Notes under the pieces: generated by a model
Database searches by the model: none
What the model was told of the DNA's origin: nothing
The model's input: only the letters and a program-made list of their open reading frames with translations
Translations under genes and position numbers: made by a program
Shown: positions 1 through 9,549 of the stretch, piece after piece
Layout of the letters: the number at the start of each line of letters is the position of its first letter
Position numbering within the stretch: the first letter of the stretch is position 1
UHGV virus genome: UHGV-0307316
DNA: 64,000 nucleotides
From: a virus
Direction: 5' to 3' (one strand)

Positions 1-150
1 CCTCTCCCCCTCTTACTCCCCCTCTCCCCAAAAGTCAAGAGAAAAATTTGTAGCGGATTGAAAAATAATTCTTGATTTGCGTTCTGTTTTGTGGTAGTCG
101 TGCGCACCCGTTTCATTACAGTTTTGCCAAAAATATTTTTAAAATTTTTA

Positions 151-210
151 TTGACTCTTTGAACGTGGTTATCTAATATTTACATCAACGGGGAGGGAAT
201 GACCTTCCCC
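151..210 (+). promoter_or_regulatory. class-B early promoter (TTGACT-N17-TAATAT) with transcribed 5' hairpin
   Basis: -35 at 151-156, -10 at 174-179, AT-rich UP region; hairpin GGGGAGGG-AATGA-CCTTCCCC at 190-210. Confidence 0.6.
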
Positions 211-242
211 ACTAAATAAAATCCTAAACTGGAGATTCAAAA

Positions 243-431
243 ATGGCATCAAGAAAAATTAAAGTTGGCGATGAGGTTAACATTAAGCACGAATACTCTT
301 ACAAAATGCTAACTATACGCTCTTATAAGGTTTATCAGGTGGAAGCTATCCACAAAGATAATACTTTTTCCTTAAAAGGGTATAGCGAACGTTTCCCTGC
401 TGAACTCTTTGAGAAATGGAGCGTGAAATAA
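243..431 (+). CDS. hypothetical early protein (62 aa)
   Basis: ORF with ATG start, GGAG RBS upstream; directly downstream of promoter plus 5' hairpin cassette. Confidence 0.6.
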   Translation: MASRKIKVGDEVNIKHEYSYKMLTIRSYKVYQVEAIHKDNTFSLKGYSERFPAELFEKWSVK

Positions 432-637
432 TGCTTTACAGTCGTGAATTGATGGTTACAACTAACGTTAACACAAATGCAAAACGTTTTTACATGCAAA
501 TTTGTGGCGTATGGTCTAGAATATCAGAAGCTGACTATTGCAACTATGTAGAAACAGCTATAAACTCTAATTGCTACCTTACAAGAAATACTAAAAAATT
601 TACGAGACAGACAGCAATTTACTACTACGATAAATAA
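431..637 (+). CDS. hypothetical early protein
   Basis: ORF; ATG at 431 overlaps upstream stop (TAATG); ORF track alternative start 416. Confidence 0.5.
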   Translation: MLYSRELMVTTNVNTNAKRFYMQICGVWSRISEADYCNYVETAINSNCYLTRNTKKFTRQTAIYYYDK

Positions 638-644
638 AAAGTAC

Positions 645-680
645 TTTACAAGGGGCTTATAGTTCGATAAAGTAAGCCCC
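645..680 (+). promoter_or_regulatory. class-A promoter cassette (TTTACA-N17-TAAAGT) with embedded inverted repeat
   Basis: Consensus hexamers with 17-bp spacer; IR GGGGCTTA/TAAGCCCC spans spacer and -10. Confidence 0.5.
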
Positions 681-727
681 AGATAAAGAGCTTTACCAAA
701 TTAACCCTTAAACTAGGAGATTCAAAA

Positions 728-1111
728 ATGGCATATCGTGCACCTAAATTCATCAACAAAGACAACTTTCGCAACACACTGGAGAAGTCACTTGATGAAA
801 ATTTTAAAGGTAACATTATCGTTGTTCACGCATTCAATTTTAAGTATGATGTAAACGGGAATAGAATCAACCATTACACGGCAACCATGTTAGATGGTAC
901 ACTTTCAAGTGAAAAAGCCGTACTAAATGCACTGGCAGGACGTGGAAAGGTATTAGTAAGATGTGATAAGAGACGTTATCAGGGCGGTGCATATGGTTAT
1001 GATGATGCTGTTTACCATCTTGAAAATATGGGCTATCAAGTAGAAAAAGCTGGAGCATCACAAATCATCGGCAGTGATGGTTATGTAACTATCTTCAAAA
1101 TTAACAAATAA
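728..1111 (+). CDS. hypothetical early protein (127 aa)
   Basis: ORF with AGGAG RBS 8 nt upstream; preceded by class-A promoter cassette. Confidence 0.65.
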   Translation: MAYRAPKFINKDNFRNTLEKSLDENFKGNIIVVHAFNFKYDVNGNRINHYTATMLDGTLSSEKAVLNALAGRGKVLVRCDKRRYQGGAYGYDDAVYHLENMGYQVEKAGASQIIGSDGYVTIFKINK

Positions 1112-1116
1112 AGTAC

Positions 1117-1152
1117 TTTACAAGGGGCTTATAGTTCGATAAAGTAAGCCCC
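1117..1152 (+). promoter_or_regulatory. class-A promoter cassette
   Basis: Near-identical copy of 645-680 cassette. Confidence 0.5.
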
Positions 1153-1197
1153 AGATAAAAAGCTTTACTACTCAATCCTAAATTGGAGAACTTAAAA

Positions 1198-1491
1198 ATG
1201 GCTATTATCAAAAACGTTGTAATTACTGCAAAGACTCGTGATGACGCTCGCGTTATGGCTAAAAAGTTATGCGGTAAAGTGGTTGACAACGGAAAACAAT
1301 CTGCTGTAAGGTGGGGTGTGAAGGTTGATAAACAGTTGAAGTTAAAAAATTCACCGATAAACCTTTTTACATGTGTAAACACTATCGGGAAGACAAATGT
1401 ATACACGAAAAAGGCATACATTAGACGCGTAGCATTAACATCCCCCATTCGTACAATGAGAAGTTATGCAAAGCTGAAAATTAACAAATAA
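1198..1491 (+). CDS. hypothetical early protein, basic
   Basis: ORF track starts at TTG 1183; first ATG at 1198 has GGAG RBS. Confidence 0.6.
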   Translation: MAIIKNVVITAKTRDDARVMAKKLCGKVVDNGKQSAVRWGVKVDKQLKLKNSPINLFTCVNTIGKTNVYTKKAYIRRVALTSPIRTMRSYAKLKINK

Positions 1492-1496
1492 AGTAC

Positions 1497-1532
1497 TTTA
1501 CAGGGGGCTTAAAAGCTGATACCTTAAGCCCC
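1497..1532 (+). promoter_or_regulatory. class-A promoter cassette (variant)
   Basis: TTTACA plus IR GGGGCTTAA/TTAAGCCCC; -10 degenerate. Confidence 0.4.
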
Positions 1533-1576
1533 AGATAAAGAGCTTTACCACTAAATCCTAAACTGGAGATTCAAAA

Positions 1577-2089
1577 ATGAAAACTGTAGACGCTACCTTT
1601 GAAGTTGTAAAAGAAAAATTCACTATTATTTATGAAGCTGTCAATTGCTTTGAAGCAAGCCATAATCTTGATAATTGGGAATTTACAGATGACCATCAAG
1701 GCGGTGTGACGATTAAAAATCCTAACTGTCAGCGTAATGAATTTAAATATGCAATCCCTTTACATTACAGCCTTAAACAGCTTTCAAGTGACTATGCAAA
1801 ACAAGGCCGGGCAAATCCATCAAAAGAGGCTTACATCAGCTTACAGAAAGAACTAGAAAGAGATTTAGAGGCTTCAGAATATAACATTGCCGCGAAAGTT
1901 GTAGATGCAAATGGCAGCACTGTTTTAGAAAGTTTTTATATTGGTTACGCTTTCGATTGGTGCTACAGTGACGGCGATGATTTAGAGGATAGACTAAAAG
2001 AAGAGGTGAACAACGCAGACGCAGAATCTGAAGTATTAGAACGTTTGGAATCGTTGAAAGACTCAGTGATGAATATCTTTAAGAACTAA
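1577..2089 (+). CDS. hypothetical early protein, strongly acidic (170 aa)
   Basis: ORF with RBS; acidic C-terminal half (D/E-rich). Confidence 0.65.
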   Translation: MKTVDATFEVVKEKFTIIYEAVNCFEASHNLDNWEFTDDHQGGVTIKNPNCQRNEFKYAIPLHYSLKQLSSDYAKQGRANPSKEAYISLQKELERDLEASEYNIAAKVVDANGSTVLESFYIGYAFDWCYSDGDDLEDRLKEEVNNADAESEVLERLESLKDSVMNIFKN

Positions 2090-2098
2090 ATAGATTCC

Positions 2099-2134
2099 TT
2101 TACACGGGGTTATCAAGCTGGTAGGATAGCCCCA
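2099..2134 (+). promoter_or_regulatory. class-A promoter cassette (variant)
   Basis: TTTACA plus IR GGGGTTATC/GATAGCCCC. Confidence 0.4.
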
Positions 2135-2181
2135 GATAAAGAGATTTATCAAATAAAGCCCTTAAACTAGGAGATTCTAAA

Positions 2182-2478
2182 ATGAAATTATCAAATAAAG
2201 TCCGTGAAAATTTAAGCAAGTTACTTAATAAAATTGATTTCATTGAAACATCAAGAAATAGTCATGATGTTATGGAATGGTTACACGGAAAAATCAAAGG
2301 CCGTCGTGTAGTGATTTGCTTATGGAACAGTTGCAGGGAGTATAAAAAACCTGTATTGCAAGTCAATATTTATGATGATACTTTTAAAAGTCCTGTAAAA
2401 TCTAAAAGCGATTTATTAGAATCCTATGAGATAACTGTAAATGGCAAAGTATCACGTAAAGAGGAAACACCATGTTAA
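2182..2478 (+). CDS. hypothetical early protein
   Basis: ORF with AGGAG RBS. Confidence 0.6.
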   Translation: MKLSNKVRENLSKLLNKIDFIETSRNSHDVMEWLHGKIKGRRVVICLWNSCREYKKPVLQVNIYDDTFKSPVKSKSDLLESYEITVNGKVSRKEETPC

Positions 2479-2804
2479 TGACTGGTATCACTGCAATCAT
2501 TGCCATTTTCGCTCTATATAAGGCATATAAAGCCTATAATCTAGCAAATAAGGCAACCACCCAGCAGGTTAGCAATAGCCTTGTAGAAAGCTTTCTAGGG
2601 CGTTTAAGTGATGAGCAAATAAAGCGGCTAGAGATGAGCTTCAGATATAAAGCGAAAACCTATCAGATAAGTGACATCTTCAAAGATAATTTTCAGTTAG
2701 TGGATGATTATAATTCTCTGATAAATGCTTTAAATGTCAGTGACTTAAAAGACTACTACGCTGTAATTGTTCAAGAATTGAGCAAACGAAAACAAAACTG
2801 TTGA
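2472..2804 (+). CDS. hypothetical protein with N-terminal transmembrane helix
   Basis: ORF; N-terminus MLMTGITAIIAIFALYKAY is hydrophobic. Confidence 0.55.
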   Translation: MLMTGITAIIAIFALYKAYKAYNLANKATTQQVSNSLVESFLGRLSDEQIKRLEMSFRYKAKTYQISDIFKDNFQLVDDYNSLINALNVSDLKDYYAVIVQELSKRKQNC

Positions 2805-2860
2805 CACTGGTTTTTAGATAGATTAAATTACACATCAACGGGGAGGGAATGACCTTCCCC
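2801..2860 (+). promoter_or_regulatory. class-B promoter (TTGACA-N17-TAAATT) with 5' hairpin
   Basis: -35 2801-2806, -10 2824-2829, hairpin 2840-2860. Confidence 0.55.
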
Positions 2861-2894
2861 ACTAAATAAAGCCCTTAAACTAGGAGATTCAAAA

Positions 2895-3053
2895 ATGTTT
2901 TGTGCAGGTGATAAAGTTGTCTGGAATGATATAGATGACGGTTTATGTACGAAAGTTGTTGTTATCTTAGAAATTGATTATATCACTGGTGTTGCAACTG
3001 TAGCAGATAATGATATAATCTTTGATGTCTTAATTAGTGAACTGTCAAAATAA
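2895..3053 (+). CDS. small hypothetical protein (52 aa)
   Basis: Below ORF-track cutoff; open frame read by hand, ATG 7 nt after AGGAG, behind class-B cassette. Confidence 0.45.
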   Translation: MFCAGDKVVWNDIDDGLCTKVVVILEIDYITGVATVADNDIIFDVLISELSK

Positions 3054-3079
3054 AATCCTTAAACTAGGAGATTCTGAAA

Positions 3080-3352
3080 ATGTATACTACTAACAACGGT
3101 CGCACTTTAAACGTAACCCTGCGTCACTATGTGAATGGTGTGATGCACTTTGATGATTTACAAGCTGAGCAACACATCTTAAATTGGCAAGTTGCAGGAC
3201 TCCAAAAAACTGCTACAGGATACGGGAAAAAGATTCCAACCAGTTGGAAAGTATACTACGCAGGACGTTTACGCAGAATTTATCAAGATGTGCAAAGCAA
3301 TAGCGCATCGAGTTACATTATAGTAAAAGGCAAAAAACTGCATTTAATGTAA
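3080..3352 (+). CDS. hypothetical early protein
   Basis: ORF with AGGAG RBS. Confidence 0.6.
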   Translation: MYTTNNGRTLNVTLRHYVNGVMHFDDLQAEQHILNWQVAGLQKTATGYGKKIPTSWKVYYAGRLRRIYQDVQSNSASSYIIVKGKKLHLM

Positions 3353-3357
3353 AGTAC

Positions 3358-3393
3358 TTTACAAGGGGCTTATAGTTCGATAAAGTAAGCCCC
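3358..3393 (+). promoter_or_regulatory. class-A promoter cassette
   Basis: Identical to 645-680 cassette. Confidence 0.5.
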
Positions 3394-3438
3394 AGATAAA
3401 GAGCTTTACTACTCAATCCTAAATTGGAGAACTTAAAA

Positions 3439-3843
3439 ATGGCTATTAATAACCGTGAATTATCAATTTTAAAAGCACGTTTGACCGTTAACCGGATTAA
3501 TGTTATCACGTCATCAGCACCAGATGAAACACTACAAAACATTATTGGGAAGATTCAAAGTGTTATCTTAGACGTTGAAAGCGTAAAAAACTCATTGACT
3601 GACGTTGCAGCAGGTATCACGCTAGATGGTGCACAACATGAAATGGCCGACATGTTAGGCAAATCTAAGGTAATGAATAAAGAGTTAGATTTGAAAATGT
3701 TCCGATTTGCTGTTAAAGTGTGGTTATCTGTCGAGTATGATGCTAACTTTGCAATCGCTGACTTTTTCGCCACTTGGTTGCAGCGTAATTTGGCAAATCA
3801 CGATTTCCGTAATATCTGCGATGCAATTTATGCAGAACTATAA
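3439..3843 (+). CDS. hypothetical early protein
   Basis: ORF track starts at TTG 3424; ATG 3439 with GGAG RBS; N-terminus paralogous to 1198 gene (MAI..N). Confidence 0.6.
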   Translation: MAINNRELSILKARLTVNRINVITSSAPDETLQNIIGKIQSVILDVESVKNSLTDVAAGITLDGAQHEMADMLGKSKVMNKELDLKMFRFAVKVWLSVEYDANFAIADFFATWLQRNLANHDFRNICDAIYAEL

Positions 3844-3853
3844 AAAATTTTTG

Positions 3854-3912
3854 TTGACACTGGTTTTTAGATAGATTAAATTACACATCAACGGGGAGGG
3901 AATGACCTTCCC
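3854..3912 (+). promoter_or_regulatory. class-B promoter with 5' hairpin
   Basis: TTGACA 3854-3859, TAAATT 3877-3882, hairpin 3892-3912. Confidence 0.55.
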
Positions 3913-3946
3913 CACTAAATAAAGTCCTAAACTGGAGATTCAAAAA

Positions 3947-4150
3947 ATGGCTATTATTAATGGTTTAACCATTGAAACTACACACATCAAAGATATCAAA
4001 GTTGGTGATATAGTCCTTTCCCACGGCGTAGAAAAAACTGTCACTGCAAAGGATATCAAAGAGGATTCTTTCATGGGTAGGACTCTCTTCGGTGATTCTT
4101 ATTGCTTAGGCTATCTTGCAGTTTTAAAAGTTGTCAAAAATAACAAATAA
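3947..4150 (+). CDS. hypothetical early protein
   Basis: ORF behind class-B cassette. Confidence 0.55.
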   Translation: MAIINGLTIETTHIKDIKVGDIVLSHGVEKTVTAKDIKEDSFMGRTLFGDSYCLGYLAVLKVVKNNK

Positions 4151-4155
4151 AGTAC

Positions 4156-4191
4156 TTTACAAGGGGCTTAAAAGTTGATAACTTAAGCCCC
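4156..4191 (+). promoter_or_regulatory. class-A promoter cassette (variant)
   Basis: TTTACA plus IR GGGGCTTAA/TTAAGCCCC. Confidence 0.4.
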
Positions 4192-4236
4192 AGATAAAGA
4201 ACTTTACCACTAAATCCTAAACTGGAGATTCTAAAA

Positions 4237-4413
4237 ATGATGAACTACTTTAACATTCCCGATACCTGTAGATTATTGACACAAGAAGAAAATTTGGGTA
4301 AACCTTTCATTTACCACATGCCAGATAACACGGCAAAAACTTATAGTTACAATGTTAACCGTTTCACCGCATACGCTGCAAAGAACGGCTATAGGTTGGT
4401 TACTCAAAAGTAA
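4237..4413 (+). CDS. small hypothetical protein (58 aa)
   Basis: Below ORF-track cutoff; read by hand, ATG after GGAG, behind class-A cassette. Confidence 0.45.
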   Translation: MMNYFNIPDTCRLLTQEENLGKPFIYHMPDNTAKTYSYNVNRFTAYAAKNGYRLVTQK

Positions 4414-4489
4414 TGCTGGTTACAACTGCTGGCGAGATTCCTACAGTTGCAGTCAAACTAGTTTTCTCAAAGAAAGTTAAATAAAGCAC

Positions 4490-4525
4490 TTTACAAGGGG
4501 TTTATAGTTCGATAAAGTAAGCCCC
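4490..4525 (+). promoter_or_regulatory. class-A promoter cassette
   Basis: TTTACA-N17-TAAAGT, IR GGGGTTTA/TAAGCCCC. Confidence 0.5.
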
Positions 4526-4571
4526 AGATAAAGAGCTTTACCACTCAATCCTTAAACTAGGAGATTCAAAA

Positions 4572-5114
4572 ATGAAATGTTATCACGGAACTACTCAAGA
4601 AAATTTCCTCAACCTGATTAATAACGGTGATAAACCATCAGGCGCATGGAATTGTTCGGATATGGACGGCAATTTTTACGTGTATCCAGAAAATAAAATC
4701 TATGGCGACGATGATGAAGAGATAACATCGGAGGGCATTCAGCAAGCTCTAGGGAACGCCACTATTACGGCGGCCTTCCAGATGAAAACCCAAAATATTG
4801 TTATCTTAGAACTCGATATTCCAGATGATGAGCTAAATGATGATTATTCTTGTGATAATATGTCGAGTGTAGCAAGTTTTACAGAGTACTTTGATGTAAA
4901 CTGGATTAAAAAGGTCTATACAACAGAGTTTAACGCTATGTATTCGCCTTTTTGTCTTCCTTCACTGGATAACCCAAATATGAACTATCTTGATGAGACA
5001 TTAGAACTACTTGCTAAAAGTGTTCAACAGTCGGACAGTATTCAGGTTTTTTGTGACATCATAGATACACTGACAGGAAACATTGCAGAAGAGGATTTAA
5101 AGAGCTTTTTCTAA
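4572..5114 (+). CDS. hypothetical early protein, acidic (180 aa)
   Basis: ORF with AGGAG RBS; D/E-rich. Confidence 0.65.
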   Translation: MKCYHGTTQENFLNLINNGDKPSGAWNCSDMDGNFYVYPENKIYGDDDEEITSEGIQQALGNATITAAFQMKTQNIVILELDIPDDELNDDYSCDNMSSVASFTEYFDVNWIKKVYTTEFNAMYSPFCLPSLDNPNMNYLDETLELLAKSVQQSDSIQVFCDIIDTLTGNIAEEDLKSFF

Positions 5115-5146
5115 AAACCTATGCAATCACCTTATAAACACTAATC

Positions 5147-5167
5147 AGCCCCTTGTAGGGGCTTTTA
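5147..5167 (+). terminator. rho-independent terminator
   Basis: AGCCCC-TTGTA-GGGGCT followed by TTTT. Confidence 0.55.
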
Positions 5168-5180
5168 GAGGGCTTAAATC

Positions 5181-5414
5181 ATGCTTACAACCATTTATCT
5201 CATCCTCTCAATTTGTAATGGCCATTCATGTGACTTTAAAGGGCTTGAAGAGTTTACAGGAAGTAAAGAAAATGCTATTCAAGTTTGCCAGATAGCAAGG
5301 CAAGACTATCCCGCCAGTGATGATATACAATGTTACTTTAAGACAGAAGATGACGACGGAATCTATTTCGACAGTGTTGACGGTCAATATGAAATTATCA
5401 TTGAAAAAGACTAG
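5181..5414 (+). CDS. hypothetical protein with hydrophobic N-terminus
   Basis: ORF downstream of hairpin/T-run terminator at 5147-5167. Confidence 0.5.
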   Translation: MLTTIYLILSICNGHSCDFKGLEEFTGSKENAIQVCQIARQDYPASDDIQCYFKTEDDDGIYFDSVDGQYEIIIEKD

Positions 5415-5471
5415 ACAAGCCTGATAAAAGTCTGTAAATTGTCAATCAACGGGGAGGGAATGACCTTCCCC
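5411..5471 (+). promoter_or_regulatory. class-B promoter with 5' hairpin
   Basis: TAGACA-N17-TAAATT, hairpin 5451-5471. Confidence 0.5.
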
Positions 5472-5505
5472 ACTAAATAAAACCCTTAAACTAGGAGATT
5501 CAAAA

Positions 5506-5847
5506 ATGGCTTATGTAACCGTAATTACCGATAAAGCTGGCGCATCTTGGTCAACTCAAGTAAGTGATAAGATGTCACCTATGCAGTGCCTAAAATACTT
5601 TGAACAGTGGAACAAAGGCGAGGACACAAGCCCCTTTCAAGTGATGCAGATTATCCATGTAGATAACGAAGGGAATAAAACGGTTTTAAATAGTGAATAC
5701 TACGCAAGCCGTTTTGAAACGAGAAGTAAAACAATGAAGCTTTTACGTGAATCCGGTTATGCCCATATCGCCGCGTTAATCTGGGATGACCTGCTAAAAA
5801 GTCAGCGTATCAGCTATGTAAAGCCTGAAAAAATATTCATCAGTTAA
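5506..5847 (+). CDS. hypothetical early protein
   Basis: ORF behind class-B cassette. Confidence 0.6.
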   Translation: MAYVTVITDKAGASWSTQVSDKMSPMQCLKYFEQWNKGEDTSPFQVMQIIHVDNEGNKTVLNSEYYASRFETRSKTMKLLRESGYAHIAALIWDDLLKSQRISYVKPEKIFIS

Positions 5848-5976
5848 TCAATAACTTACAAAAAACTTTTAAAAAAGTGTTGACAATACCCCTTGACATT
5901 GGTAACTTTGTTCGAGGGGGCTTATCTAAAAGGGATTCACTTAAAAGATTCTTTATAGATAAGCTCAAAAAATTAC

Positions 5977-6035
5977 TTGCAATCAACTATCAAAACAAGT
6001 AAATTACTAATCAACGGGAAGGCAATAACCTCCCC
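5977..6035 (+). promoter_or_regulatory. class-B promoter with variant 5' hairpin
   Basis: TTGCAA-N17-TAAATT; hairpin GGGAAGG...CCTCCCC with compensatory changes. Confidence 0.5.
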
Positions 6036-6067
6036 ACTAAATAAAGTCCTAAACTGGAGATTCTAAA

Positions 6068-6598
6068 ATGAACAAATTTCAAGCTATCAACTTCATTCGT
6101 TCAAATGCTGTAATGTCTAAGCCTGTAAAAGATACATACGAATTCCGTTGTAATGGGGTACATTTCGCAACAATCACCAAATCAGAAAACGGGGCTTATT
6201 ACGTTCATCGTCGTAATGTTTCCACTGTTGTAGTCTCTCACTTTATGCAAGCTGTAGCGGAATTATTACCGTTATTCTTAGAGATTTACTTAGATGAGTG
6301 TAAAAACGTTCACAACCACGTTAAAAACCTTTTAAACGGTTATAAAATGGCTTATGAACGTTCTATCAAGTCCTTAAACAAGTTCTATAAAGCCCCTGAA
6401 AACTCTGTTGCTTCAGCCTATGGCGTAGGCGGTTGGACTGTTAGTCTCTTCGAAGTGGAAGAAATCGAGCTTTACGACCATCGACCTAACGGTTACTCTA
6501 AGACTCTCGGTGAAGGTTTAACGTTCAATATCAAGAACTTAGAAAAAACTTTAAAAGATATTGAAAAAGATATTGACGAGACAATAAAAAGTCTGTAA
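6068..6598 (+). CDS. hypothetical early protein (176 aa)
   Basis: ORF behind class-B cassette. Confidence 0.65.
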   Translation: MNKFQAINFIRSNAVMSKPVKDTYEFRCNGVHFATITKSENGAYYVHRRNVSTVVVSHFMQAVAELLPLFLEIYLDECKNVHNHVKNLLNGYKMAYERSIKSLNKFYKAPENSVASAYGVGGWTVSLFEVEEIELYDHRPNGYSKTLGEGLTFNIKNLEKTLKDIEKDIDETIKSL

Positions 6599-6632
6599 AT
6601 TGTCAATCAACGGGGAGGGAATGACCTTCCCC
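6573..6632 (+). promoter_or_regulatory. class-B promoter with 5' hairpin
   Basis: TTGACG-N17-TAAATT, hairpin 6612-6632. Confidence 0.5.
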
Positions 6633-6664
6633 ACTAAATAAAGTCCTAAACTGGAGTTATCAAG

Positions 6665-6928
6665 ATGGAAAACGTAGAATTAACCACACTTTTACAAATT
6701 GCAACTGACAAAGAAGATGTAGCACTGTTTCACCGTATCGAAAGCGATTTATTCAATGGTGAAATCATCAAAGAGTCTTACGAAGTTGTCGGATTCAAAG
6801 ATGGTAAAGCGTTTGGCTTTTTTGACCTCGACAAAGGCAACGCTGTCACAAAGTATGATGTCGTATCTTGTGAGATTCTTACAAAATACAACGAAAAAAG
6901 GCTTGCAACATACGCCAATATGCAGTAA
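6665..6928 (+). CDS. hypothetical early protein
   Basis: ORF behind class-B cassette. Confidence 0.6.
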   Translation: MENVELTTLLQIATDKEDVALFHRIESDLFNGEIIKESYEVVGFKDGKAFGFFDLDKGNAVTKYDVVSCEILTKYNEKRLATYANMQ

Positions 6929-6960
6929 ATTACTAATCAACGGGAGGCGATAACCTCCCT
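6903..6960 (+). promoter_or_regulatory. class-B promoter with variant 5' hairpin
   Basis: TTGCAA-N17-TAAATT; hairpin GGGAGG...CCTCCC. Confidence 0.5.
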
Positions 6961-6994
6961 ACTAAATAAAACCCTTAAACTAGGAGATTCAAAA

Positions 6995-7243
6995 ATGGCA
7001 ACTATCCGCGCTACTGTCAATGCCTATGGCTGTTATACTCTGGACGTTAAATTCGATATTGGTGGAACTGATGAGTGTTTTTCATTAGTGAAGACAGTTA
7101 TCAAACAAGTTATTCCAGATTATAACCCTACTGATGACTTCTGGAAAGATGCTGTAAAAGAGGCATTAAACGACGAGCATCACTATCATTACTGGGGTGA
7201 CTTGATTGTTTCCCTGTACTACAATAAACAAGGTTACAACTAA
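6995..7243 (+). CDS. hypothetical early protein
   Basis: ORF behind class-B cassette; followed by terminators. Confidence 0.6.
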   Translation: MATIRATVNAYGCYTLDVKFDIGGTDECFSLVKTVIKQVIPDYNPTDDFWKDAVKEALNDEHHYHYWGDLIVSLYYNKQGYN

Positions 7244-7283
7244 TCGACGCAACGGGGCTAAATAGCCCCAGATACCTGAACAG

Positions 7284-7331
7284 CCCCTATTTAGTATGGA
7301 TTCGATAGAATCTATCTCATAGGGGCTTTTT
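7284..7331 (+). terminator. rho-independent terminator ending early (+) block
   Basis: Stem CCCCTAT/ATAGGGG followed by TTTTTT; preceded by hairpin GGGGCTAAATAGCCCC at 7251-7268. Confidence 0.6.
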
Positions 7332-7339
7332 TACGTCTA

Positions 7340-8880
7340 TCGAATCCTTATACAATCTCTTTCCATCACCTTTCCAGAATCTATCTCATACCTTAAAAGC
7401 AATAACTCTATAGTCTACTCTATAACCTCTTATCAAATCAACTTAAATAAAAGCCCATAACCCGAAAGGGAAGGGCAACCGTTTAAACGCTCTATAAAGC
7501 TCTATAACAGCCTTATCAACCTAACTTAAGGGATTGCATTAACTCACCCTTAAAAGCTCTTTACAGGGCTTTATAGAGGCTTAAAAGAATCTTATAAGGG
7601 TGTAAGCTTTATTACCTCGTTAGCTATCTTGTGAACTACTAAAAAGGGCTTGTTAGTGTCTTAAAAGTATGTTATAGGGGCTTAAAAGTTACGTAAAAGA
7701 GGCTATAAAGTTACGTAAATACTAGCCCCCTTAACATTTTCTTAACATTTTCTTAACAATTTCTTAACAATCCCTACATAGTTATTCTTTTAAGGCACTT
7801 GTTAGCAACTTGTTAGCACCTTGTTAAATCTCTGTTAATACCACGTAAAAGCCTTGTAAGAGTCTTTGACATAGCCTTAAAAGCTCCTGTAAAGCCCTAT
7901 AAAGAGTTATCTGTACAGTTGGGGTGTAACTACTAGGAAGAGACTTAAAAGAGCTTATAAAGAGCTATAGAGAGCTTTTAAGAGGTATGTTTAGAGAATC
8001 ACTAAGAAAGGAAAGGAACGATAAGGAAGAAGTAGTGACCATGTTAACAGCTTGTTAAAAAGATTAAATACTTGTTAGAAACTTGTTAATTATCTTAACA
8101 AGATAACTCTTAAAAATTAACTTGTTAGCTCTTGTTAGTCATCTGTTAAGATTCTGTAAAGCCTATGTATCAACTGTTAAGAAACTGTTAAGCCCTTGTT
8201 AGTTCTGTTAAGAATCTGTTAAGACCTTTGAAGAGTTGTTAAGAGCTTGAGAGAGCTGTTAAGAGATTGTTAAGGATATTTTAAAATTTTGCAAAGTACT
8301 TGTAAGGGAGCTGTTAAGGGCTACCAAGCAGATATACATCTTCTACAGATATTTTTCAGTTCCTTCAAAGACCCTAAAAAATGACTTGATAGTCCTATTT
8401 TATAAAAATTTTAAAATTCTGAATAATTACCTAGACAGTCTTTTAAAAATACAGGTAATAACAGGCTTATAAGATACCTTGTTAGTACCGTGTTAGACCT
8501 TGTGAGATAAGGTCTGTAAAGATATTCCTGTTAAGTTTGTTAAAACAGTCTATATAGAGGCTTAGTAATACCTAGTGAACACCTATAGAGGGTATCATAG
8601 GTAACATAGGGATTAAGAGGTGTATAGGAGCTTCTAAGAGGGTATAGAGAGATGGTTAAGGTGATTGTATAGGTTGTTTAGAAGGCTTGTTAGAAGAGTG
8701 TTTAGAAGGGCTATTTAGAAGGGTTATACAGAGGGCTATTAAGACCACTAGATAGTTACTAAGATACTATATAGTACTATATAACTATATAGAGAGTAAG
8801 ATTAAGAAGGTTGTTAAGAAGGATAGATATTTTATTCACATATGATGGTGACCAAGAGGTTGGGACAACCGATAAAATTT
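7340..8880. repeat. non-coding iteron-rich region (candidate replication origin)
   Basis: No ORF over 60 aa; about 30 copies of YTGTTAR and related motifs, many at 10-11 bp phasing; tandem TTTTCTTAACA x4 at 7738-7780. Confidence 0.6.
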
Positions 8881-8885
8881 TATAA

Positions 8886-8913
8886 AAATTAAAAAGCCCC
8901 CAATTAAGGAGGC
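8886..8913 (-). terminator. rho-independent terminator ending minus block
   Basis: Minus-strand hairpin GCCTCC..GGGGGC followed by T-run. Confidence 0.55.
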
Positions 8914-8925
8914 TCTTAAGATATT

Positions 8926-9549
8926 TTAAATCAGTGTTTCCAGAACTGTCTTCAGTGATGACTTGGTTGTCTGATAAAAATGAGTAAATCCATTGTTGTT
9001 ATCGAATATCTGCATCATGATATCATCACCCTTGATTGGGTAAACTCGGATATCATAGTGAAAACCATTAAAGACACAAGAGCCATTACAGAATGCACTA
9101 AAGTCATCAACTGAGATATACTCTTCATGTCCTGTGATTTTTATACAAACGCCTTTACTCGGTCTCTTAGGGTTGATATCTTCCATCACAGACATACTCT
9201 GTCCACCAAGAGATACCATAGTGACCACTTTACGGTTCTTCTGTTTAAAGTACATCTTAACTTTCTGCAAAGTGTCTTCATAGAATGGATAAGACTTCTC
9301 TACAAAGATTCCTTCAAGTGGCTCTTTACCATTTTCAACTTCTCGGTTATGCCGTACTGCAAAGATAATTTGTTCGAACCAGTCAAGATTTTCTTCGGAG
9401 AGTGCTTCCCGAACATCCTTCCAGTCAAGTACTAAGTAGTTACCTTCAACTTCTTTTAAGTTATCTTTTTCCATATCTATCACACCATTATCGTAAAACT
9501 TGATATTCTGGTACTGCGAATTTATTACTATTATTCTTGATGAGGTCAT
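8926..9549 (-). CDS. hypothetical protein (207 aa)
   Basis: Long ORF, last gene of minus block before terminator at 8886-8913. Confidence 0.55.
   Translation of the reverse strand: MTSSRIIVINSQYQNIKFYDNGVIDMEKDNLKEVEGNYLVLDWKDVREALSEENLDWFEQIIFAVRHNREVENGKEPLEGIFVEKSYPFYEDTLQKVKMYFKQKNRKVVTMVSLGGQSMSVMEDINPKRPSKGVCIKITGHEEYISVDDFSAFCNGSCVFNGFHYDIRVYPIKGDDIMMQIFDNNNGFTHFYQTTKSSLKTVLETLI

Follow-up and report, generated by a model that had tools for sequence, protein, structure and literature searches.

A viral DNA stretch of 64,000 nucleotides, genome UHGV-0307316 (the window, meaning the whole stretch analysed), carries near its start a block of 18 small genes and 14 promoter-hairpin cassettes (150-7335, + strand), with a promoter-less hairpin and an intrinsic terminator at its end. 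These cassettes are probably expression cassettes of the PeSL type, a name given to a strong sigma-70-like early promoter with a GGGG...CCCC stem-loop and a ribosome-binding site, repeated before ORFans in hyperplastic regions (PMC2839356, PMC4122927). In this reading each cassette would supply a promoter, the class A hairpin would serve as a processing (or attenuator) signal, the class B hairpin would act as a 5' stabiliser, and recombination would take place between the repeats. The window represents a Felix O1-like myovirus of the genus Felixounavirus, as bases 1-8000 match E. coli and Salmonella phages; the top matches are phage ASO1A (98% identity over 87% of the query) and phage EcoM2 (92% over 94%).

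The seven class A and seven class B cassettes all lie on the + strand between 150 and 7000, and each fills the gap between two small accessory genes, starting at the upstream stop codon and ending at the downstream ATG. The initial annotation of this DNA had proposed a modular block with two classes of sigma-70-type promoter cassette, seven copies each, and all 14 were located in the sequence, well beyond chance, with a -35/-10 spacing of 17 nt in every copy. Its statement that each of about 18 genes has its own cassette holds for the gene number only: the block contains 18 open reading frames (ORFs) with ribosome-binding sites against 14 cassettes, and the four genes at 431, 2472, 3080 and 5181 follow a neighbour and lack a cassette of their own. 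The consensus strings that it gave are likewise exact in four of the seven class A and two of the seven class B copies, the others being variants at the same spacing. A fuzzy search of the whole 64-kb window on both strands found no class A or class B core motif outside the block. Both classes share a segment of the 5' untranslated region that holds the ribosome-binding site, CCT(T)AAACT(A)GGAGATTCAAAAATG (one example at 706-730, + strand), and a solitary copy of it stands upstream of the gene at 3080.

Class A cassettes have -35 hexamers at 645, 1117, 1497, 2099, 3358, 4156 and 4490. The exact string TTTACA-N17-TAAAGT occurs four times against 0.07 expected by chance, and the remaining three copies carry TACCTT, TAGGAT or TAACTT as the -10. 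The inverted repeat GGGGCTTA/TAAGCCCC, previously taken for the whole element, is present but forms the upper stem alone, the top of an interrupted hairpin of about 60 nt that surrounds the entire promoter with three helices of 6, 5 and 9 bp, separated by 1x1 and 3x3 loops. In the lower stem, the region of the upstream stop codon (UAAAGU) pairs with GCUUUA and is followed by the 1x1 mismatch; in the middle stem, CUUUA of the -35 pairs with UAAAG at +4 to +8. Above it lie the 3x3 internal loop (CAA over AGA), the upper stem of 8-9 bp, and an apical loop of 11-13 nt that includes the first bases of the -10. Six copies fold with -21.5 to -24.6 kcal/mol (z -2.3 to -5.1). The transcript most likely starts at the A after CCCC, on the 3' side of the internal loop. 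With such a start, the promoter's own transcript would be devoid of the 5' half of the hairpin, so the class A structure would form only in read-through RNA arriving from upstream.

The individual class A copies, all on the + strand, follow this plan closely. The first (635-695) has its -35 TTTACA at 645-650 and its -10 TAAAGT at 668-673, both within the three-helix hairpin, with a predicted start at A681, a Shine-Dalgarno (SD) sequence at 716 and an ATG at 728. The second (1107-1167) has its -35 at 1117-1122, TAAAGT at 1140-1145, a predicted start at 1153 and an ATG at 1198, while the third (1487-1547) combines TACCTT at 1520-1525 with a 9-bp upper stem, GGGGCUUAA/UUAAGCCCC, before the ATG at 1577. 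The fourth (2089-2148; -10 TAGGAT, ATG 2182) is a variant with compensatory changes, its upper stem being GGGGUUAUC/GAUAGCCCC and its lower stem AUAGAUU/GAUUUAU. The last three copies are found at 3348-3408 (-35 3358-3363, TAAAGT 3381-3386, ATG 3439), at 4146-4206 (TAACTT 4179-4184, ATG 4237) and at 4480-4540, where the upper stem includes a U·G pair (GGGGUUUA/UAAGCCCC) and the ATG is at 4572.

Class B cassettes, with -35 hexamers at 151, 2801, 3854, 5412, 5977, 6573 and 6903, are ordered as follows: the -35, 17 nt, the -10 (mostly TAAATT), 10 nt ending in ATCAAC, a hairpin, ACTAAATAAA, and the shared ribosome-binding segment. TTGACA-N17-TAAATT is found exactly twice against 0.03 expected by chance; the other -35 hexamers are TTGACT, TAGACA, TTGCAA (twice) and TTGACG. 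The hairpin has 6-8 bp (-7 to -15 kcal/mol), with an unstructured leader and the ribosome-binding site after it. It had been placed at about +10 of the transcript; in fact it begins 10 nt after the -10, which would be only about 3 nt into the RNA (at +3 or +4) if transcription starts at the usual distance. The proposal of a stem-loop close to the mRNA 5' end, with its stem kept by compensatory change, is borne out, and the two copies singled out for altered stems (6016-6035 and 6942-6960) still fold.

On the + strand, the first class B cassette (151-210) consists of TTGACT at 151-156, TAATAT at 174-179, ATCAAC at 184-189 and a hairpin at 190-210 before the ATG at 243. Two copies have the exact consensus: 2801-2860 (hairpin 2840-2860, ATG 2895), in which the upstream TGA stop falls within the -35, and 3854-3913 (hairpin 3893-3913, ATG 3947). 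The fourth (5412-5471; hairpin 5451-5471, ATG 5506) has a -35, TAGACA, that holds the upstream TAG stop, and the sixth (6573-6632; -35 TTGACG, hairpin 6612-6632, ATG 6665) has a -10, TAAATT, that holds the upstream TAA. Both remaining copies use TTGCAA as the -35 and have variant hairpins, namely GGGAAGGCAAUAACCUCCCC at 6016-6035 in the fifth (5977-6035, ATG 6068) and GGGAGG-CGAUAA-CCUCCC at 6942-6960 in the seventh (6903-6960, ATG 6995). Upstream stops thus sit inside class B hexamers at 2801-2806, 5412-5417, 6596-6601 and 6926-6931 (TGA in TTGACA, TAG in TAGACA, TAA in TAAATT), so that promoter and coding sequence overlap. A promoter-enclosing stem was also considered for class B, in which the -35 pairs with ATCAAC or the spacer end; it can be drawn by eye in several copies, but whole-cassette folds reach a z of only -1.5 to -2.0 and such a stem is not claimed.

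Structure and promoter are both conserved among relatives. The comparison covered 15 Ounavirinae genomes, comprising the window and the blocks of 10 Felixounavirus, 2 Mooglevirus and 2 Kolesnikvirus phages; homologous blocks are present in all three genera, and in relatives a macro-domain gene with its terminator precedes the block. This set yielded 72 distinct class A copies, of which the alignment took in 71. Across these 71, the 20-pair structure is paired in 96.4% of cells, compared with 31-56% when the partners are slid by 1-3 columns, and four pairs show changes on both sides. The upper stem has changed from G-C to U-A in all Kolesnikvirus class A copies, and a lower-stem pair has made the same change in the variant before the gene at 2182. 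The pairs were recounted in anchored coordinates, since MAFFT had set the 1-nt gap of the 66-nt variants inside the stem. In this recount 97.8% of cells pair as + strand RNA, 88.8% by Watson-Crick pairs only, and 89.2% as - strand RNA, the gap between the strands arising because U·G and G·U pairs are frequent. The arm-to-arm distance varies by 1-2 nt. The initial annotation had left open a DNA operator or a site on read-through RNA for class A; given the strand difference and the variable arm distance, the RNA reading fits better.

The promoter boxes are retained as well. The -10 conforms to TAnnnT exactly 17 nt from TTTACA in 71 of the 72 distinct class A copies, while the loop exists in 30 versions; as the -10 is kept in a varying loop, promoter and hairpin are both under constraint. 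In class B the -35, the 17-nt spacer and the -10 persist across variants, and all 32 distinct hairpins fold despite differing stems, which include GGGGAGGG/CCUUCCCC, GGGAGG/CCUCCC, GGGGC/GCCCC and GGGA/UCCC. Two class A cassettes of ASO1A have CCUC in place of CCCC, which is still compatible with G·U pairing. The same CCCC to CCTC change occurring in both (positions 2150-2185 and 5190-5225 of its locus) suggests gene conversion between cassettes.

In phage records at large, class A turned up at 1560 places in 288 records, and class B at 1407 places in 248. The records listed are genomes of 83-91 kb except for two short ones (22 and 38 kb), and all those whose taxonomy was read are Ounavirinae; a degenerate class A pattern was found in only one contig of IMG/VR. 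Searching bases 1-9000 for a curated RNA family gave only two chance-level Rfam matches at E up to 1. Additionally, the Kolesnikvirus phages of Erwinia and Hafnia have a further cassette type (at 5508-5576, 7994-8071 and 8399-8473 of their loci), with TTGCAA or CTTTACA followed by GGGGTTA..TAACCCC and GTCGAAAC, whose tail resembles the ACCGAAACGA leader of the PeSLs of phage phi1.

What is best documented about the cassettes is that genes are gained and lost with breakpoints in them. When the genes of the 11 Felixounavirus sequences are mapped, the comparison reveals single genes or small runs that are present in some and absent in others. In pairwise alignments with the 10 relatives, both breakpoints lie in cassettes or within 6 nt of them in all 11 presence/absence events. 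Three junctions connect class A to class A (732/1106, 730/1490 and 4236/4478), four connect class B to class B (3952/5445, 6656/6925, 6074/6595 and 6067/6924), and the other four, namely 2898/3048, 245/695, 243/414 and an insertion at 5508, use the shared ribosome-binding segment, which is itself a recombination site. Selection for viable genomes would favour intergenic junctions anyway, and the more telling point is the overlap within repeats: at the junctions, adjoining matched segments have 30-100 bp of the subject sequence in common, as would be expected for homologous exchange between repeats. Furthermore, the cassette variant before one gene differs between genomes: the gene at 3439 is preceded by any of five variants, as is the gene at 4572, and even the class can switch, for example before the gene at 728.

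A coherent mode of action can be proposed from these features. Host RNA polymerase would read each near-consensus sigma-70 promoter, which is the simplest account of the conserved boxes. In read-through RNA the class A hairpin would separate the cistrons; the most likely way is RNase III-type processing, with the cut falling in the 3x3 internal loop. After such a cut the upstream message would end in a protective 3' hairpin, and the downstream RNA would begin near the promoter's own transcription start; alternatively, the hairpin may be an attenuator, as reported for PeSL stem-loops. The class B hairpin, about 3 nt from the predicted start, would be a 5'-terminal stabiliser against 5'-end-dependent decay. 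As the cassettes are near-identical repeats, homologous recombination between them would insert, delete and re-promote single genes with expression unbroken.

Several points weigh against this reading. The literature search found no transcriptomes or start-site maps of Felix O1-like phages, so promoter use, transcript starts, RNA cleavage and stabilisation are all inferred. RNase III cleavage is argued from the shape of the hairpin. A generic promoter scan of this A/T-rich DNA finds 45 consensus-like sites against 27.6 expected, and the paired-cell counts come from related, recombining copies rather than independent events. The middle stem CUUUA/UAAAG is nearly invariant, with one-sided departures in 4 of 360 cells, and says little about pairing, while the symmetric changes in both arms would also be compatible with a palindromic operator. 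No U-tract follows the cassette hairpins, none of which is picked up by a terminator scan. The timing of expression is mixed as well: in end-point reverse-transcription PCR of Felix O1, four block genes peak at 5 min, in line with the early expression supposed at first, but four peak at 25 min, and structural genes also appear at 5 min (PMC3185647). The 'early' label for the block is therefore plausible but weakly supported.

Other explanations of the class A element have to be weighed against processing. The closest competitor is a pure attenuator or terminator on read-through RNA, acting without endonucleolytic processing, which is possible but not favoured. In its favour, phi1 has the same architecture, hairpins closing every cistron would shield neighbouring cassettes from one another, and one PeSL stem-loop reduced lacZ expression to roughly the same extent as the rrnB T1 terminators, an effect that its authors called termination (PMC2839356). 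Such a fall in lacZ, however, cannot separate termination from cleavage followed by decay. Moreover, intrinsic termination at the cassettes is unlikely, as only the hairpin at 7283-7335 is followed by a U-tract and no cassette hairpin is terminator-like by score; termination would also not need a long interrupted helix with a conserved 3x3 loop, which resembles the early intergenic folds of phage T7. Processing is ranked slightly above pure attenuation, with both a DNA operator and a purely recombinational role low.

That GGGGCTTA/TAAGCCCC is an operator, through which a dimeric phage or host protein shuts the early promoters together, is improbable. The repeat does lie over the -10 and the start site, where repressors usually bind, and the outer 4 bp of both arms (GGGG/CCCC) do not vary within Felixounavirus or Mooglevirus and are symmetrically changed (GGTG/CACC) in Kolesnikvirus. 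Nevertheless, the arms vary within one genome (GGGGCTTA, GGGGCTTAA, GGGGTTATC), the distance between them shifts by the 1-2 nt noted above, and T stands opposite G at one position in 33 of 72 copies and at other positions too, which breaks the symmetry of the DNA and keeps the pairing of the RNA. Pairing also reaches the flanking helices, which have a compensatory change of their own (pair 8-59, G-C to U-A), and no DNA-binding domain was found among the 18 block proteins in Pfam or PHROGs. Equally little probability is given to hairpins that have no role in expression. In that case the cassettes would persist as selfish repeats or as substrates of recombination, gene conversion would homogenise them, and the stems would be targets or by-products of the recombination machinery. 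All breakpoints in cassettes, variants that move between genes, the identical C-to-T change in two cassettes of one genome, and the speculation of the PeSL authors that GGGG...CCCC is a recombinase target would suit it. It does not account for compensatory and wobble changes that keep pairing across three genera while the loops drift, which indicates that the structure itself is selected; the asymmetry between the strands favours the transcribed one, and the class B hairpin stays at a fixed 10 nt from the -10.

Within the preferred processing interpretation, a more specific and rather doubtful idea is that class A is dual-coded, with a host-type promoter in the DNA and an RNase III-type hairpin in the read-through RNA. 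The cut end would then nearly coincide with the start at CCCC/AGAUAAAG, giving the same mature leader either way, and the cassette would be an insulated, portable plug in three Ounavirinae genera.

The block and its flanks contain some further elements besides the cassettes. At the window start (1-30), upstream of the first class B promoter, lies a polypyrimidine tract, CCTCTCCCCCTCTTACTCCCCCTCTCCCC, which is conserved in Mooglevirus. A promoter-less hairpin, AGCCCCUUGUAGGGGCU, followed by UUUUAG occupies 5147-5170 between the genes at 4572 and 5181; the latter gene has a different ribosome-binding site (GAGGGCTTAAATCATG), and Mooglevirus is arranged likewise. Between the genes at 5506 and 6068, a third element (5870-5976) has tandem -35 boxes (TTGACAATACCCCTTGACA), the -10 TAACTT and, after it, a near-perfect hairpin of about 19 bp, GGGCUUAUCUAAAAGGGAUUC...AGAUUCUUUAUAGAUAAGCUC, with no ORF with a ribosome-binding site following. 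All Felixounavirus and Mooglevirus loci retain this element, which in phage finno shows one compensatory change, from A-U to U-A; it could be a small RNA or a long double-stranded RNA signal. The gene at 4237 encodes 58 aa in the window against 82 aa in relatives, and its end is overlapped by a second ORF of 42 aa (4352-4480); either a frameshift in this genome or an error of sequencing is suggested by this. Where the last gene ends, a promoter-less hairpin, GGGGCUAAAUAGCCCC, followed by AGAUAC (7254-7275, + strand) is found in 11 of 11 Felixounavirus sequences, and the terminator-like hairpin GCCCCUAU...AUAGGGGC with UUUUUU (7283-7335, + strand), which corresponds to t23 of Felix O1, closes the block. 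A non-coding stretch of 1.6 kb (7340-8900) then separates the + strand block from - strand genes. It is rich in short repeats, including four copies of CTTAACA(T/A)TTT at 7731-7780 as well as GGGGCTTAAAAG and CTCTATAAAGC; the record of phage finno has two annotated repeat_region features in the corresponding part. The non-coding stretch might be an origin or a packaging-related region.

Regarding the proteins of the block, no Pfam family could be assigned to any of the 18, and the PHROG families that they match are all of unknown function. The acidity noted earlier for two products is confirmed, with isoelectric points of 4.54 (net charge -15) for the 170-aa protein of 1577-2089 and 4.05 (net -24) for the 180-aa protein of 4572-5114 (both + strand); with 18-19% Asp+Glu, this acidity is moderate. 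The suggestion that they mimic DNA gains nothing from structure prediction. For 4572-5114, the predicted model matches with moderate confidence an ADP-ribosyltransferase fold instead. H5-G-T, Y36/Y38 and E80 are conserved in this protein, although the catalytic residues are only guessed, and its relatives occur in this phage group only. The N-terminal HGT and the Tyr-x-Tyr recall ADP-ribosyltransferases such as T4 Alt/ModA/ModB, DarT, Tpt1/KptA and cholera/pertussis-type toxins, and relatives have a macro-domain gene just upstream of the block. The protein differs from those enzymes in being small (180 aa) and acidic; it has no sequence-level match in Pfam, and a profile search with its family found none among PDB sequences. 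The model of the 1577-2089 protein (predicted local distance difference test score 78.8) has only weak, mixed fold matches, none of them informative, and no DNA mimic is among the top 60. This protein is present in every relative examined, and its homologues (34-47% identity) in unrelated Salmonella/Citrobacter myoviruses of about 140-160 kb and Providencia siphoviruses indicate that the gene travels beyond the Felix O1 group.

These results are useful and coherent, though they do not describe a new kind of system. They explain why isolates differ by whole genes in this accessory-gene block, and they predict, for transcript mapping, 14 start sites as well as RNA ends set by the hairpins. In the genome paper of Felix O1, the authors give the class A (57-bp) and class B (39-bp) repeats as direct repeats and do not include them among the predicted promoters (PMC3185647). 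Some database records label class B as promoter plus terminator, a terminator label that rests on predictors and can now be corrected. Additionally, a possible early ADP-ribosyltransferase, together with the upstream macro-domain gene of relatives, is a lead for host take-over or counter-defence, and the promoter-in-a-hairpin design could serve as a compact insulated expression part.

Known systems offer parallels for both hairpins. In phage T7, RNase III processing signals (R0.3, R0.5, R1, R1.1 and R1.3) separate the early genes, as reportedly described by Dunn and Studier in 1983. The T7 sites lie between small early genes, beside minor promoters, and cleavage on the 3' side of an internal loop leaves a 3' hairpin on the upstream mRNA. 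The T7 record carries no annotation of its RNase III sites, and the comparison is one of intergenic folds. When folded here, the T7 early intergenic regions gave an upper stem (9-13 bp) and a lower stem (4-8 bp) with an internal loop between them (-17 to -24 kcal/mol), the same layout as class A, which likewise offers about two helical turns of double-stranded RNA with an internal loop, the shape of an RNase III-type substrate. They differ from class A in having no sequence similarity and internal loops that are asymmetric and larger; T7 early RNA, moreover, comes from three promoters at one end, whereas here there is one promoter per cassette. As for class B, 5'-terminal stem-loops of the ompA 5' untranslated region type are said to have been recognised as mRNA stabilisers in E. 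coli by Emory, Bouvet and Belasco in 1992. Class B resembles them in its stable hairpin a few nt from the predicted 5' end, its unstructured leader and its ribosome-binding site, and differs in being a repeated portable module rather than a feature of a single gene.

The closest known elements are the PeSL cassettes, described in the T4-type phages RB49/phi1, PST/T4 and nt-1/KVP40 (Arbiol et al. 2010, PMC2839356; Comeau et al. 2014, PMC4122927), where they mediate indels and form mini-circles (PMC2839356). Intergenic regions of phi1 extracted here have the same layout as the window cassettes: a stop codon, an A/T-rich lead-in, a sigma-70-like -35/N17/-10, a G/C-rich stem-loop with G·T pairs, a ribosome-binding site and an ATG. 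The ribosome-binding segments themselves are alike (ACTAGGAGAATCAAAATG in phi1, ACTAGGAGATTCAAAAATG in the window). In both systems many near-identical copies precede small function-unassigned genes in a variable region, and junctions of indels and replacements fall in the cassettes. At the sequence level, the elements of a PeSL are therefore all found here, from the promoter in an intergenic repeat and the stem-loop to the lead-in, SD and ATG and the clustered variable region with its junctions, the upstream stop codon being part of the lower stem in class A and of a promoter hexamer in class B. Among PeSLs the stem-loop varies in position (upstream, between the boxes, on either of them, or directly behind the -10), and class A corresponds to the commonest subclass, with the stem-loop 'between -35 and -10 or overlapping the -10'. 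The class A hairpin is nonetheless distinct in its three helices, which pair the -35 with +4 to +8, and the class B hairpin lies inside the transcript, whereas the closest PeSL subclass ends before the start. PeSL promoter and terminator activity and mini-circles have been shown experimentally, while the cassettes of the window are described at the level of sequence. The carriers also differ, being Ounavirinae here and T4-type phages (Straboviridae) for PeSLs; the literature searched mentions PeSLs only in T4-type and a few other phages, not in Felix O1 relatives. The cassettes thus appear to be a known kind of element, the PeSL, in a lineage for which no report of it was found, and with a more elaborate, promoter-enclosing hairpin. 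This would extend portable cassettes of the PeSL type from T4-type phages to the unrelated Felix O1 relatives, which are widely used therapeutic and typing phages.

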